64,000 bases of DNA, from assembly GCA_028695015.1 (NCBI GenBank), contig JAQVJR010000001.1, positions 255,297 to 319,296 of the forward strand, in the 5' to 3' direction. Numbering within the stretch: the stretch's first letter is position 1; each line of letters starts with the position of its first letter. Position numbers and translations under genes: made by a program. The notes below the pieces were generated by a model. That model searched no databases and had not been told where the DNA came from. It saw nothing but the letters and a program-made list of their open reading frames with translations. The stretch comes from Minisyncoccota bacterium. Its GTDB lineage: Bacteria > Patescibacteriota > Minisyncoccia > UBA6257. This document shows, in pieces, positions 4,747 to 56,957 of this stretch.

Positions 4747-6902
4747 TGAGTAATTATTAAGAGATTGTCTTTTTTGTTTTCATAATGAGGTAGTTTTTGC
4801 CAAATAGCTTCAGTAACAAATGGCATGAATGGATGTAGCATTTTTAAGCAATCTTTCAGAATTATATCAAGGATATATTGAGCTTGTTTTTTATCTTGAT
4901 TATCTTTAATCCTGTTTTTCATTTCCTCAATTATTTTATCAGCAAAAGTGTGCCAAAAATAATGATAAAGGGCTTCTCCAGCTAAAGAGAATTTAAAGTT
5001 TTCTAAGTTTTTTGTTATCTTTTGTTTTGTTTTCTTAAAGGCAATTAATGTCTTTTTATCTTTTACATTAAGTGTTGGTTTTTTACCATCATAATCATTT
5101 AAATTACTAATAACAAAACGAGAGGCATTCCATATTTTATTAGCAAAATTACGATAACCTTTGATTTTTTCTTCTGAAATAACAATATCATTACCAGCAG
5201 TATTACCTATAATTAAAGCCATTCTTAAAGCATCAGCTCCATAAACATCAATTACAGCTAAGGGGTCAATAACATTACCTTTTGATTTTGACATTTTTTG
5301 TCTATCTTTATCTCTGACCAAACCATGAAGATAAACATATTTAAATGGAATTTTCCCAGTATAGTAAATACCTAGGATAATCATCCTAGCAACCCAGAAA
5401 AATAAAATATCCCAACCAGTTTCCATTATGTCAGTAGGATAAAAGGTTTTAAAGTCTTTTGATTTTAACCCTTGGTTGCCAAAAAGAGTAGCATAGGGCC
5501 ATTGACCTGAAGAGAACCAAGTGTCTAAAACATCAGTATCTTTTTTTATATTCTTGCTTTGACAATAAAGGCATTTCTTAGGGATTTTATCTATTTGTAT
5601 AAAAGATTCTTTGCAATCTTCGCAATGAAAGGCAGGAATAGGAATCCCCCAACGGATTTGACGGGAAATATTCCAGTCTTTAATATTATTCATCCAATGG
5701 AAAAATACCTTTTCAAAGCGAGGGGGAATTATTTTTATCTCTCCTTTTTTTACAGCATTAATAGCTAAATCGTTTAAAGACTTATTTTTCTTTGGCAAGG
5801 GTTTAGTCATTGCTATAAACCATTGATCCATAATCATTGGCTCTATTCTGGAATTACATTTATAACAATGTCCTACTTGATGAACATGCTCTTCTTTTTT
5901 AACTAAAGAGTCACTAGCTTGTAAAATTGTTATTGATTTTTCTCTGGCTTGAGAAACATTAAGTCCAGCTAAAGGCCCAGCTAATTCATTAAAATAGCCG
6001 TTAAAATCCAAAGTCTCTCTTGTTTCTAAATGATGTCTTTGTCCAATTTCAAAATCTAAAGAATCATGGGCTGGAGTAATTTTTAAAGCCCCAGTACCAA
6101 AATCAATTTCAACATCCTTATCAGCAATTATAGGAATTTCTCTTTTAGTGATTGGTTCGATAACAACTTTATTAATTAATTTTTTATATCTATTATCCTT
6201 AGGATTAACGGCTATAGCTGTGTCTCCAGGAATAGTTTCTGGTCTGGTAGTAGCCACAGTAATCCATTTGTTTCTTTCTTCTTTTAATTTGTATCTTACA
6301 AAATAGAGAAAATCTTTTTGTTCTTGATATTTAACTTCTAATTCAGAAAAAGCGGTTTTATGCTTAGGGCAATAATTGACAATTCTTTTACCTCGATAGA
6401 GTAATCCGTCTTTCCACAATTTCTCTAAGGTTTGATAAACAGTTTTTTGAATATCCTCATCAAGAGTAAATTTTTCCCGAGACCAATCACAAGAAGCTCC
6501 TAAGAGCTTTAATTGATATCTGACAATTTTTTTGTTTTTTTGCGTATATTGCCAAACTGCTTTATAAAACTCATCTCGATTCATCTCTAAGCCAGATTTC
6601 CCTTGCTTTTCTAATTCTTTTTCAAAAACTACTTGGGTTTCAAATCCAGCATGATCAGTGCCTGGAAGCCAAAGAGTTCTTTTGCCTCTCATTCTTTGAA
6701 AACGAATCATCAAATCTTGCAAAGTAACAAAAACACCATGGCCAATATGTAATGGTGCATTAGCGTTTGGCGGAGGCATAATAATGCAAAAAGGTTTGCT
6801 TTTTTTATCAAAAGGTAATTTATCAGGATTAAAAAAGCCTGATTTTTCCCAAAGCTGGTAGATATTCTTTTCTGTTTTTTGATGTTCGTAAACCTTATCC
6901 AC
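4734..6902 (-). CDS. valS: Valine--tRNA ligase (short form)
   Basis: PPPNANAPLHIGHG (HIGH) and KMSKSKGN motifs. 722 aa, lacking the long C-terminal coiled coil. Confidence 0.85.
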   Translation of the reverse strand: MDKVYEHQKTEKNIYQLWEKSGFFNPDKLPFDKKSKPFCIIMPPPNANAPLHIGHGVFVTLQDLMIRFQRMRGKRTLWLPGTDHAGFETQVVFEKELEKQGKSGLEMNRDEFYKAVWQYTQKNKKIVRYQLKLLGASCDWSREKFTLDEDIQKTVYQTLEKLWKDGLLYRGKRIVNYCPKHKTAFSELEVKYQEQKDFLYFVRYKLKEERNKWITVATTRPETIPGDTAIAVNPKDNRYKKLINKVVIEPITKREIPIIADKDVEIDFGTGALKITPAHDSLDFEIGQRHHLETRETLDFNGYFNELAGPLAGLNVSQAREKSITILQASDSLVKKEEHVHQVGHCYKCNSRIEPMIMDQWFIAMTKPLPKKNKSLNDLAINAVKKGEIKIIPPRFEKVFFHWMNNIKDWNISRQIRWGIPIPAFHCEDCKESFIQIDKIPKKCLYCQSKNIKKDTDVLDTWFSSGQWPYATLFGNQGLKSKDFKTFYPTDIMETGWDILFFWVARMIILGIYYTGKIPFKYVYLHGLVRDKDRQKMSKSKGNVIDPLAVIDVYGADALRMALIIGNTAGNDIVISEEKIKGYRNFANKIWNASRFVISNLNDYDGKKPTLNVKDKKTLIAFKKTKQKITKNLENFKFSLAGEALYHYFWHTFADKIIEEMKNRIKDNQDKKQAQYILDIILKDCLKMLHPFMPFVTEAIWQKLPHYENKKDNLLIITQWPQ

Positions 6903-10551: not shown

Positions 10552-10580
10552 ATTATAACTATAAAATTATAATTTGTCAA
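10552..10580 (-). promoter_or_regulatory. Sigma-70-type promoter (TTGACA-17-TATAAT) driving the 10139..10483 gene
   Basis: Minus strand reads CTTGACAAATTATAATTTTATAGTTATAAT. A-rich RBS precedes the ATG at 10483. Confidence 0.5.
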
Positions 10581-10613: not shown

Positions 10614-10694
10614 AAAAAAATGCTGCCACCTATTGAAGCAAGCTTCTCTAAGTGACAGCATTCTCAGTATAACAAATGGAAAATATTTGTCAAG
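10614..10694 (-). repeat. Copy A of the promoter-hairpin-U-tract module (also the likely argS terminator)
   Basis: Minus-strand sense: CTTGACAAATATTTTCCATTTGTTATACT-GAG-AATGCTGTCAC[22-nt loop]GTGGCAGCATTTTTTTATTA. About 85% identical to copy B at 56199 in the flanks and stem, with a divergent loop. Confidence 0.55.
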
Positions 10695-17465: not shown

Positions 17466-17485
17466 AAAACTCCCTTTTTGGGAGA
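17466..17485 (-). promoter_or_regulatory. SD-sequestering hairpin in the leader of the 3D-domain gene
   Basis: Minus-strand TCTCCC-AAAAA-GGGAG followed by TTTTTTAATC-ATG. GGGAG is the only SD-like sequence before the ATG and pairs with CUCCC. A TTGACAAAT box lies ~40 nt upstream. Confidence 0.4.
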
Positions 17486-17646
17486 TAACTGACTTTATTT
17501 TATCATACTATGATTATTTGTCAAGTTTTCAAATCCAAGTTTAAATTTTAAATTTTGTAATAAATTTATTTTTTAAATCCGTTTTTTTATTCAAAAGTTG
17601 CTTTTTGAATTACTTTTAGATAAACTTAATATAAATTATATCTTAA

Positions 17647-24083: not shown

Positions 24084-24159
24084 GGGCGTATAGCTCAGTG
24101 GTTAGAGCGCCACTCTTATAAAGTGGAGGTCGATGGTTCAATTCCATCTACGCCCACCA
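24084..24159 (+). tRNA. tRNA-Ile(UAU) with encoded CCA
   Basis: GGGCGTA acceptor, anticodon stem CCACT/AGTGG, loop CTTATAA (anticodon TAT). Body closely resembles bacterial tRNA-Ile(GAU) (TTAGAGCGC, GAGGTCGATGGTTCAATTCCATC, CCCACCA). Confidence 0.75.
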
Positions 24160-45092: not shown

Positions 45093-45129
45093 ATGATTAA
45101 AACTTAAAAATATCAATAGTTTTTTAAAG

Positions 45130-45438
45130 TGCCGAGGCGGTGAATCGAACACCGGACGCTTTGCTCTTCCGAATATTCTCTAAATTACTTTAGAGTTTGG
45201 ACTATATCATCACCCTATTTATAGGGGCTGGGCGCTTTGAAGCAAATATTTACTTGCCCCTACTCTTAAAAAAGATAGTCTCTACACCTCCCTATTTGAA
45301 AATTAATTCAATTAGGTTTGGCTCGGAATTGCCCAAGACAATATTTGGGTTTTTCCGATTTCACCCAGTTTGCAATCCATATTACTATGGAATGGCCCAA
45401 AGATTTAGGCAAACGCTCTACCACTGAGCTACCTCGGC
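45130..45438 (-). tRNA. Intron-containing tRNA gene, most likely tRNA-Phe(GAA); exons 45407..45438 and 45130..45169
   Basis: 5' exon (reverse complement) GCCGAGGTAGCTCAGTGGTAGAGCGTTTGCCT. 3' exon GAAGAGCAAAGCGTCCGGTGTTCGATTCACCGCCTCGGCA. Joined, they give a 72-nt tRNA with anticodon stem TTTGC/GCAAA and loop CTGAAGA, plus U20, a GCGUC variable loop and A73 as in tRNA-Phe. Confidence 0.7.
45170..45406 (-). ncRNA. Group I self-splicing intron (IC3-like) in the tRNA anticodon loop between U33 and G34
   Basis: Exon ends in U and intron ends in G. P1: exon GCCU pairs with intron GGGC. P10: 3' exon GAAG pairs with intron CUUU just 5' of the IGS. P2: CCATA-GTAA-TATGG. P7: AGACTAT...ATAGTC. P9: CTCTAAA-GTAA-TTTAGAG. 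GGTGTAGAGACTA and CCGAGCCAAACC blocks match Azoarcus/Anabaena-type tRNA introns. Confidence 0.7.
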
Positions 45439-45545
45439 TTAATATTAAATAAAAAGTTTAGATAACTTTTATTTAATCTTCTATTTTATTATAAAGGTTT
45501 GTGCTGTCTATTCTATCTTATTATTGAAATAAAATCAATTATTAG

Positions 45546-54440: not shown

Positions 54441-56195
54441 ATGGTTCAAGAAGAATTATTTCTTTCAACGCTTATTCAAAGAGGTTTAATAAAACAAAGT
54501 GAAGCTTCAAGTCTTCTTCAAGAGGCACAAGGCTTAGAAAAGAATGTTGAGGAACTTATCAATGAAAGGAAGTTAGTGGATGAAAAGATTCTCGCCCAAC
54601 TTAAAGGCGAGCTTTTTAATTTACCAATTAAGCAATTTACCAAAGATGAAATTATCCCTCAGAGTATTTTGAATTTAATCCCAGAAGACACAGCTCGTTT
54701 CTACAATGTGATTGCTTTTAATAAAGAGAATAATGTTTTGGAGATAGGAATGGTTTATCCAAATAATTTAAAAGCCCAAGAAGCTTTAAAATTTTCAGCC
54801 AGTCGTTTAAATTTAGATCTTAGGGTTTATATCATCACTTTAACTGATTTAAAAAATATCTTAACCCAGTACCAAACCTTTACTAAAGAATTTAAAGCAT
54901 TAGTAGAGGATTTTCAAAGAAGATTTGCCGGAGTACCTAAAAAAACAGCTACTTTTAAATTAATAGACTTAGAATCTACTGCTGGTGCTGTAGCTGAAGA
55001 AGCACCTATTATTAGGCTTTTTGCTTCAATTTTAAAATTTGCTGTGCGCTCTAGAGCTTCTGATATTCATATTGAGCCAGAAAGAAATAAATTAAGAGTT
55101 AGGTTACGTGTTGATGGTAATTTAACTACAACCTTAACATTGCCTTTTGCTGTTCATTCGGCAATTGTTAGTCGGGTAAAGATAATGGCTAACTTAAAGA
55201 TTGATGAAACAAGAATACCTCAAGATGGGCGTTTTTTCTCAATGATAGATGAAAAAGAAATTGATTTTAGGATTTCAACATTTCCTACAGCCCTAGGGGA
55301 GAAGATAGCTATTAGAATTTTAGACCCCACAGTGGGTTTAAAAAGCATTCATGAATTAGGTCTTGAGGGAAGAAATTTGGAAATTTTACAATCAGAAATT
55401 TTAAAACCTTATGGGATGATTTTAATTACTGGACCTACAGGCTCTGGTAAAACAACGACTCTTTATGCATTAATGCAGATTTTAAATCAAGATAAAGTTA
55501 ATGTTATGAGTTTAGAAGATCCAGTAGAATACACTATGGAAGGAATTAATCAATCTCAGGTTTTGCCAGAAATTGGCTATACTTTTGCCAGGGGATTGCG
55601 TCATATGGTGCGTCAAGACCCAGATATTATAATGGTTGGGGAAATTCGAGACACAGAAACAGCAGAATTAGCAGTTCATTCTGCTTTAACTGGACATCTG
55701 GTTCTTTCAACCTTGCATACTAATAATGCTATTGGGGTTATCCCTCGTTTATTAGATTTAGATGTTGATTCTTATTTATTACCTTCTTCTTTAAATTTAA
55801 TGGTTGCTCAGCGTTTGGCTAGAAGATTATGTCCTGAATGCAAGAAAAAGGTCTTGGCTACAGAAAAAGAACAACAAATTATTGAAGAATCTCTATCTGC
55901 TTTATCAAAAGAAGCCAAGGAAAAATTATCTTTTCAAAAACCTTATCATGTATATAAAACCAAAGGCTGTCCAACTTGCAACAATAAAGGGTATATGGGT
56001 AGGGTAGCTATTTTTGAGGTAATGAGAATGACTCCTGAATTAGAGCAAATAATTTTATCTCAACCTTCACAAGAAAGGCTTTTTGCCGAGGCTAAGAGAC
56101 AAGGAATGATTACCTTACAACAAGATGGAGTATTAAAAGCATTAGCAGGATTAGTAAGCTTAGAAGAAATTCTTTCTATAACTTCAAGGTATTAA
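54441..56195 (+). CDS. pilB: Type IV pilus assembly ATPase PilB (GspE family)
   Basis: N-terminal GspE_N domains, Walker A GPTGSGKTTT, tetracysteine CPEC...CPTC zinc motif. 584 aa. Confidence 0.85.
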   Translation: MVQEELFLSTLIQRGLIKQSEASSLLQEAQGLEKNVEELINERKLVDEKILAQLKGELFNLPIKQFTKDEIIPQSILNLIPEDTARFYNVIAFNKENNVLEIGMVYPNNLKAQEALKFSASRLNLDLRVYIITLTDLKNILTQYQTFTKEFKALVEDFQRRFAGVPKKTATFKLIDLESTAGAVAEEAPIIRLFASILKFAVRSRASDIHIEPERNKLRVRLRVDGNLTTTLTLPFAVHSAIVSRVKIMANLKIDETRIPQDGRFFSMIDEKEIDFRISTFPTALGEKIAIRILDPTVGLKSIHELGLEGRNLEILQSEILKPYGMILITGPTGSGKTTTLYALMQILNQDKVNVMSLEDPVEYTMEGINQSQVLPEIGYTFARGLRHMVRQDPDIIMVGEIRDTETAELAVHSALTGHLVLSTLHTNNAIGVIPRLLDLDVDSYLLPSSLNLMVAQRLARRLCPECKKKVLATEKEQQIIEESLSALSKEAKEKLSFQKPYHVYKTKGCPTCNNKGYMGRVAIFEVMRMTPELEQIILSQPSQERLFAEAKRQGMITLQQDGVLKALAGLVSLEEILSITSRY

Positions 56196-56198
56196 ATT

Positions 56199-56276
56199 CC
56201 TTGACAAACTTTTTTCATTTGATATACTATTAATGCTGTCGTTTTTGGCTTGCCAGAAGCGGCAGCATTTTTTATT
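56199..56276 (+). repeat. Copy B of the promoter-hairpin-U-tract module (also the likely pilB terminator)
   Basis: CTTGACAAACTTTTTTCATTTGATATACT-ATT-AATGCTGTCG[18-nt loop]CGGCAGCATTTTTTATTA. Matches copy A at 10614..10694 at about 31 of the 36 upstream positions and in both stem arms. Confidence 0.55.
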
Positions 56277-56286
56277 ACCTTCCCTC

Positions 56287-56315
56287 TTGACAAATCAAAT
56301 CTAAAGATGTATACT
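56287..56315 (+). promoter_or_regulatory. Sigma-70-type promoter (TTGACA-17-TATACT) for the lipoprotein gene 56372
   Basis: TTGACAaatcaaatctaaagatgTATACT, then AAAGGAGCAAAAAGA-ATG with an SD. Confidence 0.5.
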
Positions 56316-56371: not shown

Positions 56372-56818
56372 ATGAAAATGAATAGAATGTTTCTTGTTTT
56401 AATGTTAGTAATTTTTTTACTAACAGGATGTAGTGGTAATGGAGTAATTCCTCCTCCAGTAGAAGAGCCACCAGTAGAGATAATAGAAGAAATAGTTGAG
56501 AGGTTTGTTGGTACATGGCTAAATGTGGATAAAAATACAGACAATGTAACCAAGATTGTTATAGCGGAAATTGATAATTATTTATCTATAAGAGTATGGG
56601 GGAAGTGTCATCCTGATGACTGTGATTGGGGGAAAAAATTTATAAAGAAAAACGAAGTAATGGATGGAGTAATAAAGTTAACTTGGCTGTTTTCAGGAAC
56701 AGAAGTTGTGCAAGAAATTATTTTACTAAATGATCCCAATGGCAGGATTAATGTAAAATACGATTATAATTATTTAGGAATAGAGTCTAATGTAACAGAA
56801 GCAATGTACAAGTCATAA
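56372..56818 (+). CDS. Secreted lipoprotein of unknown function
   Basis: Signal peptide with LLTGC lipobox. Pro/Glu-rich linker. CHPDDCDWG Cys pair. Confidence 0.4.
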   Translation: MKMNRMFLVLMLVIFLLTGCSGNGVIPPPVEEPPVEIIEEIVERFVGTWLNVDKNTDNVTKIVIAEIDNYLSIRVWGKCHPDDCDWGKKFIKKNEVMDGVIKLTWLFSGTEVVQEIILLNDPNGRINVKYDYNYLGIESNVTEAMYKS

Positions 56819-56826
56819 ATAAATGA

Positions 56827-56862
56827 AAAAAAGGGCAAATTAATTAATTTGCCCTTTTAAAA
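56827..56862 (+). terminator. Intrinsic terminator
   Basis: AAAAGGGCAAATTAATTAATTTGCCCTTTTAAAA. Confidence 0.65.
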
Positions 56863-56957
56863 TTCCTTACTCAAGACTTGACCCAATATCTTATAAAGGT
56901 ATAATAAATAGAGGCTCTAAAAGAGAGGTTTTTATAAAATTTATAATAAATAAATAC

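Follow-up and report, generated by a model that had tools for sequence, protein, structure and literature searches.

When a promoter lies directly before a terminator, as in the PR′-tR′ region that gives the lambda 6S RNA and in the case of the lambda oop RNA, the product is a short RNA. The enterobacterial small RNAs (sRNAs) DapZ and MicL belong to the type I class derived from 3′-untranslated regions (3′-UTRs); they have their own promoter at or after the end of the upstream gene and share its intrinsic terminator. Here we analysed a module made of a promoter, a hairpin and a U-tract that lies just downstream of pilB in a 64,000-nucleotide (nt) stretch of DNA from a Minisyncoccota bacterium (contig JAQVJR010000001.1, positions 255,297 to 319,296). 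This whole stretch, called the window hereafter, has 31% G+C and carries the module twice, as copy A after argS and copy B after pilB. We propose, with a probability of roughly 0.55, that the module is a complete gene for a hairpin RNA, and that in most cases the terminator of this RNA also stops transcription of the gene upstream. The elements of such a gene are present, promoter and hairpin stand in a fixed register, the stem is kept by compensatory changes, the module is multi-copy and it is separable from the promoter of the next gene (P2). From the sequence we infer the site at which transcription starts, efficient termination and a role for the free hairpin RNA.

Bacteria of the candidate phyla radiation are ultra-small and mostly uncultured, with tiny, gene-dense genomes, and to our knowledge almost nothing is known about their non-coding RNAs or the design of their transcription units. 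When compared with type I sRNAs, the module has, by its letters, both the own promoter and the shared terminator but not the seed. DapZ and MicL act through a single-stranded seed and Hfq-assisted pairing, whereas the transcript predicted for the module is the terminator hairpin alone; their promoter lies inside the coding sequence, whereas that of the module lies past the stop codon and recurs in several copies. We place the module outside this class because its predicted transcript starts at the first base of the stem, which in copy B runs without interruption for 14-17 bp and ends in a 4-nt loop.

The lambda PR′-tR′ and oop units resemble the module in having a strong promoter, a transcript end a few tens of nt downstream and a continuous short RNA, which in the module is predicted. 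A study on Shiga-toxin phage describes a similar constitutive promoter followed immediately by a terminator, with a short by-product RNA (PMC7547250). Unlike the module, the phage cases are single-copy and work with an antiterminator protein that loads at the promoter; no antiterminator factor, pause element or phage context was found for the module, and no copies in IMG/VR. Correia elements of Neisseria, REP and ERIC sequences of enterobacteria and RUP and BOX elements of pneumococcus also come close, since they are short intergenic hairpin repeats past stop codons, present or absent at orthologous sites, which can terminate or stabilise the upstream mRNA. Finally, ordinary Rho-independent terminators share with the module a GC-anchored stem, a stable tetraloop, a U-tract of 6-9 nt and a position after a gene, but they lack a consensus promoter in fixed register and form no sequence family across paralogous sites and species.

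Results

Promoter and hairpin of copy B

The pilB gene (54441..56195, plus strand) encodes a type IV pilus/T2SSE ATPase (Pfam T2SSE, E 4e-126, plus MshEN), is preceded by pilM- and pilO-like genes and ends with the stop codon TAA at 56193-56195. Just past it lies P1 (56201..56228, plus strand), a sigma-70-type promoter with an extended −10 that matches 11 of the 12 consensus positions plus the TG. Its −35 TTGACA (56201-56206) and −10 TATACT (56223-56228) are separated by a T-rich spacer of 16 nt (56207-56222), with the TG at 56220-56221. The same combination of TTGACA, a 16-18 nt spacer and TGn next to a TATAAT-like −10, which characterises extended −10 promoters of the sigma-70 type, was found in both window copies and in over 30 members of the family. 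An earlier note on this DNA had set the module 4 nt after the pilB stop; the distance to TTGACA is in fact 5 nt, and 4 nt is right if the conserved C before TTGACA is counted. Pattern checks on the letters of the window otherwise recovered every element that the note had listed for copy B, at its position.

The hairpin (56232..56269, plus strand) begins 3 nt past the −10 and 36 nt past the pilB stop, and was identified by folding, family covariation and a covariance-model match. It pairs a 5′ arm, AAUGCUGUCGUUUUUGG (56232-56248), with a 3′ arm, CCAGAAGCGGCAGCAUU (56253-56269), around a CUUG tetraloop (56249-56252), giving a stem of 17 continuous pairs, G-U pairs included, with a folding energy of −24.5 kcal/mol and a z of −6.7 relative to shuffles. 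The apical sub-stem previously read as GGC-TT-GCC does exist, although it is actually a UGG/CCA stem under the CUUG tetraloop. A T-run of six T follows (56268..56273, plus strand; 6-9 nt in the family), the first two of which are able to pair with A56232-33. Copy B carries the sequence features of an intrinsic terminator, a stable GC-containing stem-loop with a U-tract of at least 5-6 nt, in the form of 17 bp plus T6, and its hairpin is the only candidate terminator of pilB between this gene and P2. A covariance model built without window sequences scored copy B at 41.6 bits (E 3e-6); the antisense strand of copy B scored 11.4 bits with model R1.

Promoters with a 16-nt spacer and an extended −10 should initiate about 7 nt past the −10. 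For copy B, this promoter geometry predicts a start at G56235, the seventh nt past the −10, and an end in the T-run, that is, a primary transcript of ∼39 nt, 5′-GCUGUCGUUUUUGGCUUGCCAGAAGCGGCAGCAUUUUUU-3′ (56235..56273, plus strand). In 32/32 distinct family sequences the −10 is followed by T at position 6 and G at position 7, and an RNA beginning at G56235 still folds with −22.5 kcal/mol. Because transcription is expected to begin at the G of the stem's first G-C pair, RNAs made from P1 would contain nothing but the hairpin and an A-U6-9 tail.

Copy A and the extent of the repeat

A scan of the window for near-consensus promoters located copy A (10614..10693, minus strand), 16 nt past the stop codon of argS, a gene assigned by a Pfam match. 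On the same strand, copy A comprises a P1 of the form TTGACA-16-TATACT with TG (10693->10666; predicted +1 at G10659), a hairpin with a GA/AA internal loop and a GAAG-CUUG-CUUC apex (10662->10619) and a T-run (10620->10614). They are followed by a P2, TTGACA-17-TATAAT, that matches the consensus at 12/12 positions (10552..10580, minus strand) and by a gene for a lipoprotein of 114 aa, unrelated to that of copy B (10483->10139, minus strand). The claim that copy B has the architecture of copy A was thus borne out for promoter, hairpin, T-run, P2 and lipoprotein gene. The covariance model built without window sequences gave copy A 65.6 bits (E 4e-11) and returned exactly two sites in the window, with no other site below E 0.2; covariance models found no family hairpin without P1 in the 64 kb. 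The hairpin pattern occurs twice in the window versus 0.00 times expected (100 shuffles), and the presence of copies A and B is more than chance and clearly non-random.

The two copies have in common the promoter, including part of its spacer, the nine outer stem pairs (AAUGCUGUC / GGCAGCAUU) and the CUUG loop; the mid-stem differs. It had been considered that this similarity might belong to a longer duplicated block with coding sequence. This proved not to be so: the upstream genes differ (argS vs pilB) and no homology was detected between the downstream lipoproteins (E 0.18). A 5′-UTR motif shared after both P2s, TAGCAYYTT..AAA, was not enriched in the window (5 found vs 8.9 expected), and therefore the likeness of A and B past the T-run is just promoter consensus and AT-richness. 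Taken together, the unrelated flanking genes and the unenriched motif argue that the repeated unit, as delimited by these comparisons, runs from the −35 to the T-run only and measures 73-80 nt.

Selection on the structure of the RNA

Covariation was tested on 28 distinct sequences and 17 pairs, with 500 column shuffles and slid controls. Standard pairs were formed in 94.3% of the cells, and changes on both sides occurred at 11 of the 17 pairs (57 cells). None of the 500 column shuffles reached the observed pairing, number of double changes or covariation score, and sliding the 3′ partner by 1-3 columns lowered pairing to 35-70%. RNAalifold independently predicted the same basal helix. Two G-C/C-G pairs at the predicted 5′ end and the U-A just outside them are invariant, and one stem pair is a U-G wobble in 19/28 sequences. 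Covariance-model scores across the family were 60-72 bits for the sense strand vs 20-32 bits for the antisense strand, a gap of 40-50 bits. Since G-U pairs become A-C mismatches on the other strand and antisense scores are lower, these data indicate that selection acts on an RNA hairpin, with the same sense as P1 and the upstream gene, rather than on a DNA palindrome.

The same data bear on an element acting as DNA, whether as a palindrome bound by a protein, as a site of recombination or as a DNA-uptake sequence in a competence-pilus context. Such an element would agree with the inverted repeat, the conserved outer arms and the vicinity of pilB, but not with the frequent sense G-U pairs and the 40-50 bits lost in antisense, nor with an arm spacing that varies from 4 to ∼40 nt. 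In addition, the 8-mers of the arms occur just twice outside the two hairpins in 64 kb; they are not over-represented in the window, and a DNA-uptake sequence was rejected on this ground. We hold a function at the DNA level to be highly improbable.

A leaderless micro-ORF is equally hard to reconcile with the alignment. In this case, an ATG or GTG at the start of the hairpin, which is found at hairpin positions 2-4 in 31/32 distinct sequences, would direct synthesis of a tiny peptide (MLSF, MPLF etc.) and some ribosome-dependent control. However, the A or G in question pairs with a U, so that pairing already explains the triplet, and one copy has CTG at the start position. Moreover, the optimal transcription start, the seventh nt after the −10, is the G of the ATG, which would remove the start codon. 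The length of the reading frame is not conserved (4, 8, 21 or 23 codons), it runs through the terminator in both window copies, and the micro-ORF was discarded for its unconserved length; we see scarcely any chance that it is the function of the module.

Members and distribution of the family

The comparisons place the unit in a structurally conserved, multi-copy family that is present in many contigs of Paceibacterota (Patescibacteria) and is so far specific to Paceibacteria. A metagenome scan with a pattern for P1 only, TTGACAAANNNTTTNNNTTTGNTATAMT, gave at least 124 matches in at least 119 stretches, and more than 30 among the matches listed had a hairpin of the same family starting 3 nt after the −10. 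The loci came from sample types that include groundwater, lake sediment and digester. The family consensus consists of a stem beginning R-U-G-C-Y-G-U-Y-G..., often interrupted by a GA/AA internal loop, an apical stem capped by G(CUUG)C, a 3′ arm ending ...C-R-G-C-R-G-C-A-U and 6-9 U. Three length classes could be distinguished: a short one to which copy B belongs, a standard one represented by copy A, and a long one in which the apical stem is extended. The RNAs would measure 39-63 nt from the predicted start. The apex (GGAGCUUGCUCC or GAAGCUUGCUUC) seems to resemble the hairpin of 16S rRNA helix 6 in Bacillus and E. coli, and a shared G(CUUG)C tetraloop class would be the simplest explanation for this likeness.

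Contigs with two or three copies were found at five loci (L086, L090, L100, L033 and L025). Within a genome, copies are similar from ∼2 nt before the −35 to the T-run, and those of L086 are near-identical; no terminal repeats, target duplications or shared flanks beyond this unit were found among the within-genome copies compared. A search of all loci with the hairpin model added few copies to those of the promoter pattern. P1 is intact in L033b, which the covariance model detected, L025b has a 5-nt deletion in the spacer and L028b is degenerate in both parts. Hairpins reached by synteny or covariance model, and thus without the promoter pattern, also carry P1 (L006, L007 and L033b), and in decayed copies both parts are lost (L013 and L028b). 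Because P1 accompanies independently found hairpins and the two parts decay jointly, the family hairpin appears essentially never to occur without P1.

Judged by the closest relatives of its pilB, the window derives from a member of the Patescibacteria / Candidatus Paceibacterota (Parcubacteria). We then compared ten PilB-relative loci from species-representative genomes. The module was complete in L007, cut by the contig end in L006, where it is a GCAA loop variant, and decayed in both −35 and 5′ arm in L013; it was absent after pilB in six of the ten loci (L004, L005 and L008-L011). Overall, it follows pilB in about nine related lineages (the window copy, winB, and L006, L007, L028, L041, L060, L069 and L086/L090), whose PilB proteins are 76-83% identical where most of the gene is on the contig. 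In these pilB-linked copies the promoter is nearly invariant, whereas the stem differs in a compensatory way, as at a pair that is G-C in winB and A-U in L041. Sequence comparison at this locus demonstrates vertical inheritance of the module over a long divergence.

No family of Rfam 15, including SRP RNA, 6S RNA and known sRNAs, matched either window copy at gathering thresholds, and the best sub-threshold match was csRNA (21 bits vs 57 required, E 1.2). An SRP RNA, a 6S RNA or another known RNA was rejected on the lack of an Rfam match, the absence of the motifs of SRP domain IV and the multi-copy nature of the element. In the full-text literature nothing was found that describes such a promoter-hairpin element. 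We classified the family as a previously undescribed small hairpin RNA plus terminator unit.

Several related sequences were noted in the same loci. A two-hairpin variant with a P1-type promoter is present in L077 (5130-5250, plus strand); hairpin 1 has the loop C(GCAA)G and hairpin 2 the loop C(UUCG)G, and the second hairpin ends in the GGCAGCAUUUUUUU of the family. The start of a two-hairpin variant also stands at the pilB-linked position of L006 (4750-4807, plus strand) before the contig end. A conserved ATACCTTAAAATTAT(A/G)TTAATTAAAATTGATTATT follows the T-run by ∼0-40 nt in L060, L069, L028, L025 and L086, but not in the window copies. A palindromic ∼22-mer (ATATGGAAGTTGAACTTCCATA-like) flanks the spacer downstream of pilB in L004 (∼4755-4900) and occurs singly after the module in L007 (∼4860) and L086 (∼7340); it may be a different short repeat family. 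Finally, the promoter-only pattern also caught another recurrent start, AGATTTACAAATTRATAGTACCCAAATAAAGACTGTGAAGCAGAAAAAGACC..., that has no relation to the hairpin family; it occurs in about a dozen contigs, several of them labelled human gut (L019, L026, L031, L042, L053, L072, L079, L085, L088, L094, L104, L118 and L129).

Genomic context

In ∼22/34 copies the module starts 0-75 nt past a co-directional stop codon, often 3-18 nt, and twice it overlaps the stop. Five or six copies have only a divergent upstream gene or none, as in L084, which has the start of a divergent gene at a distance of 6 nt. A few copies precede a convergent gene, and in L029, L080 and L127 the next gene is convergent or no co-directional one follows. 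In L080 the module and an argS homologue converge, with the module directly against the stop codon of that gene; copy A has the opposite orientation. The upstream genes are pilB (in about nine lineages), argS and genes for a GGDEF protein, a UDG-like protein and membrane proteins; those downstream encode lipoproteins, HTH/Fic-like, ParA-like and radical-SAM-like proteins, and others.

These positions would also suit a module in which only the hairpin and the U-tract matter, as an efficient terminator and 3′-end protector of the upstream gene, and in which the promoter has no function through its product and is carried along as an 80-nt cassette spreads or is homogenised, or serves as a polymerase roadblock. 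Most copies stand 3-18 nt past a stop codon, the loops CUUG, GCAA and UUCG are all extra-stable tetraloops of the classic type, and distribution among pilB loci of similar divergence is patchy (present in about nine, absent in six). The near-identity of the L086 copies and the inverted module beside argS in L080 are also in line with a mobile or homogenised cassette. On the other hand, wherever the hairpin is intact P1 keeps at least 11/12 matches with the TG and its exact register, despite compensatory turnover of the stem, whereas a neutral passenger would be expected to decay, and some copies lack any co-directional gene upstream that they could terminate. Presence/absence polymorphism does exist at orthologous sites, as in miniature transposable elements (MITEs) and in REP and Correia elements, but the terminal repeats, target duplications and many near-identical copies of such elements do not. 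Unlike them, the module has no terminal inverted repeats beyond the stem and no target-site duplication, its copy number is low (2 per 64 kb), its promoter points into its own hairpin instead of outward, it is inherited vertically at pilB and its stem evolves by compensation. The search of IMG/VR gave 0 matches, which also told against spread on viral contigs and led us to reject a phage origin. On balance, we consider a pure terminator cassette unlikely, though it is the alternative that we weigh most heavily against a self-contained hairpin-RNA gene.

P2 and the downstream gene

Copy B is followed by P2 (56287..56315, plus strand), in which TTGACA (56287-92) and TATACT (56310-15) are 17 nt apart. 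The second promoter announced in the earlier note ahead of the lipoprotein gene was therefore present, with 11/12 consensus matches. The gene itself (56372..56818, plus strand; ATG at 56372, GGAG at 56360-63) lies outside the repeat and encodes a small lipoprotein of 148 aa with the lipobox LLTGC, whose N-terminus, MKMNRMFLVLMLVIFLLTGC, is a lipoprotein signal. It has its own terminator-like hairpin at 56829-56858, and a third 11/12 promoter-like site is located at 56878, ahead of the next ORF. With promoter-like and terminator-like sites around the lipoprotein gene and the next ORF, genes here look individually framed. The 5′-UTR after P2 (56316-56371) holds TAGCAC(C)TTTAAAA(A)T, which is kept among orthologues of the lipoprotein unit (L008, L060 and L069).

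Homologues of the lipoprotein are encoded downstream of pilB in L060 and L069, where P2, 5′-UTR and gene are kept and the distance to the module is 75-184 nt. In L008, pilB is followed after 30 nt by a P2-type promoter, the same 5′-UTR and the lipoprotein gene, with neither P1 nor hairpin. In the family, a promoter with at least 10/12 matches occurs within 200 nt downstream in 17/31 copies, compared with 11.6% of random 200-nt windows from the same loci. P2 is best read as the independent promoter of the next gene, separable from the module in these alignments. Because the unit of P2 and gene stands at variable distance or is module-free, P1 and the hairpin are read as a transcription unit of their own and not as the first of two promoters. 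The proposal of regulated or insulated expression of a downstream secreted-protein islet fared unevenly: the hairpin is well positioned to shield pilB from the unit that follows, but control of such an islet is not supported, as the flanking genes are unrelated and the P2 unit is separate.

Alternatively, P1 could be a second, stronger promoter of the downstream gene and the hairpin a conditional terminator or 5′-terminal stabiliser in its leader, with a factor or nucleotide levels deciding read-through and P2 giving basal expression. The module is co-directional with the downstream gene at most loci, and 14/31 copies have no strong P2 within 200 nt. An unrelated case of promoter, hairpin, T-run and gene with no second promoter (17524->17470, minus strand) suggests that early terminator-like hairpins are used in leaders of this genome, and the conserved promoter spacer could be a factor-binding site by analogy with lambda PR′ and Q. 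Such attenuation would nevertheless need RNA upstream of the hairpin, and there is no sequence between start and hairpin for an alternative antiterminator structure; no cis-regulatory family of Rfam matched either. Both window copies have an excellent P2 (11/12 and 12/12), the unit of P2 and gene is module-free in L008 and at variable distance in L060 and L069, three copies (L029, L080 and L127) are convergent or have no co-directional downstream gene, and the downstream genes are functionally unrelated. An attenuator or leader is accordingly rather improbable in our judgement, a little more so than the pure terminator, although it keeps some likelihood for the copies that lack a P2.

Other features of the window

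The unrelated promoter-hairpin mentioned above (17470-17524, minus strand) stands before an ORF (17441->16908). It consists of TTGACA-16-TAAAAT with TG and, ∼12 nt downstream, CTCCC-AAAAA-GGGAG plus T6; the ATG of a putative secreted protein of 177 aa follows 40 nt further on, with no second promoter, and the element does not belong to the module family. It looks like a leader or attenuator.

The window also contains a group I intron (45178-45416, minus strand; Rfam, 93.9 bits) within a split tRNA gene, with flanks at ∼45100-45460. The 5′ exon starts with GCCGAGGTAGCTCAGTGGTAGA, the 3′ exon finishes with TTCGATTCACCGCCTCGGCA, and ARAGORN called the tRNA solely after the intron had been removed in silico. 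Which anticodon it has depends on where exactly splicing occurs. ARAGORN also predicted a tRNA-Ile with the anticodon UAU at 24084-24159. This tRNA is uncommon in bacteria, where AUA is mostly read by a modified CAU tRNA.

Discussion

We propose that transcription from P1 begins at the hairpin's first strongly paired base, a G, and that RNA polymerase would then transcribe the hairpin alone and terminate at its own U-tract. The product would be an RNA of 39-63 nt, with copy B at ∼39 nt, and would consist of little more than a blunt-ended stem-loop carrying an A-U6 tail. Because the module usually lies just past a co-directional stop codon, the same hairpin would also terminate the upstream mRNA (pilB, or argS for copy A), so that these mRNAs would end in the same structure, and the next gene would be transcribed from its own P2.

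As for the free RNA, it may bind or titrate a protein or a nuclease that recognises terminator hairpins and 3′ ends. A decoy-type role of this kind is most plausible, over base-pairing with targets, because the RNA has almost no single-stranded sequence, its loop switches and the internal loop is missing in the short subtype. An extended form of this idea is that the hairpin RNAs are abundant, trans-acting terminator-mimic RNAs specific to Paceibacteria and identical to the 3′ ends of module-bearing mRNAs. They would titrate a protein that binds terminators or 3′ ends, or an exonuclease, or they would invade sibling terminators, unless abortive 5′-arm oligonucleotides from P1 do so. If true, they would set termination or mRNA stability of all module-bearing genes together, but we regard this extension as quite doubtful, more so than either the cassette or the attenuator. 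Trans pairing among siblings predicts 5′ arms homogenised within genomes, and this found no support, since the copies of L025, L033 and L100 differ in the first 3-8 nt. More speculatively, the transcript resembles a minihelix of the tRNA acceptor type, by its invariant G-C, C-G start, its helix of 10-13 bp, its invariant unpaired A and its U-rich trailer, and could be a substrate of a tRNA-processing enzyme.

Several points weigh against a hairpin-RNA gene. The proposed role of the free RNA is the weakest link of the argument, and the start site, termination efficiency and abundance of the RNA are all inferred from DNA letters. The loop varies among CUUG, GCAA and UUCG, as expected if only stability matters, which fits a pure terminator equally well. 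The predicted RNA has almost no unpaired nucleotides and the short subtype, including copy B, has no GA/AA internal loop, so no sequence-specific recognition surface is universal. As the loci were gathered through a promoter pattern, conservation of the promoter spacer is partly a matter of ascertainment. Finally, 14/31 copies have no promoter of at least 10/12 within 200 nt downstream; three of these precede a convergent gene and the P2 of L069 lies just past the scanned stretch, and in the remaining copies read-through from P1 could matter.

Should the RNA turn out not to be made, or to lack a role, the module would be a conserved terminator cassette, of modest interest. If the RNA is made as predicted, it would be among the shortest primary transcripts known in bacteria, and one hairpin would serve both as the product of a gene and as the terminator of its neighbour. 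The family is a well-defined candidate supported by covariation, with a dedicated consensus promoter, a fixed predicted start and its own terminator, which recurs across many Paceibacteria and is absent from Rfam. The module is also a natural part that joins promoter and terminator, and it can serve as a marker of gene boundaries when these genomes are annotated.

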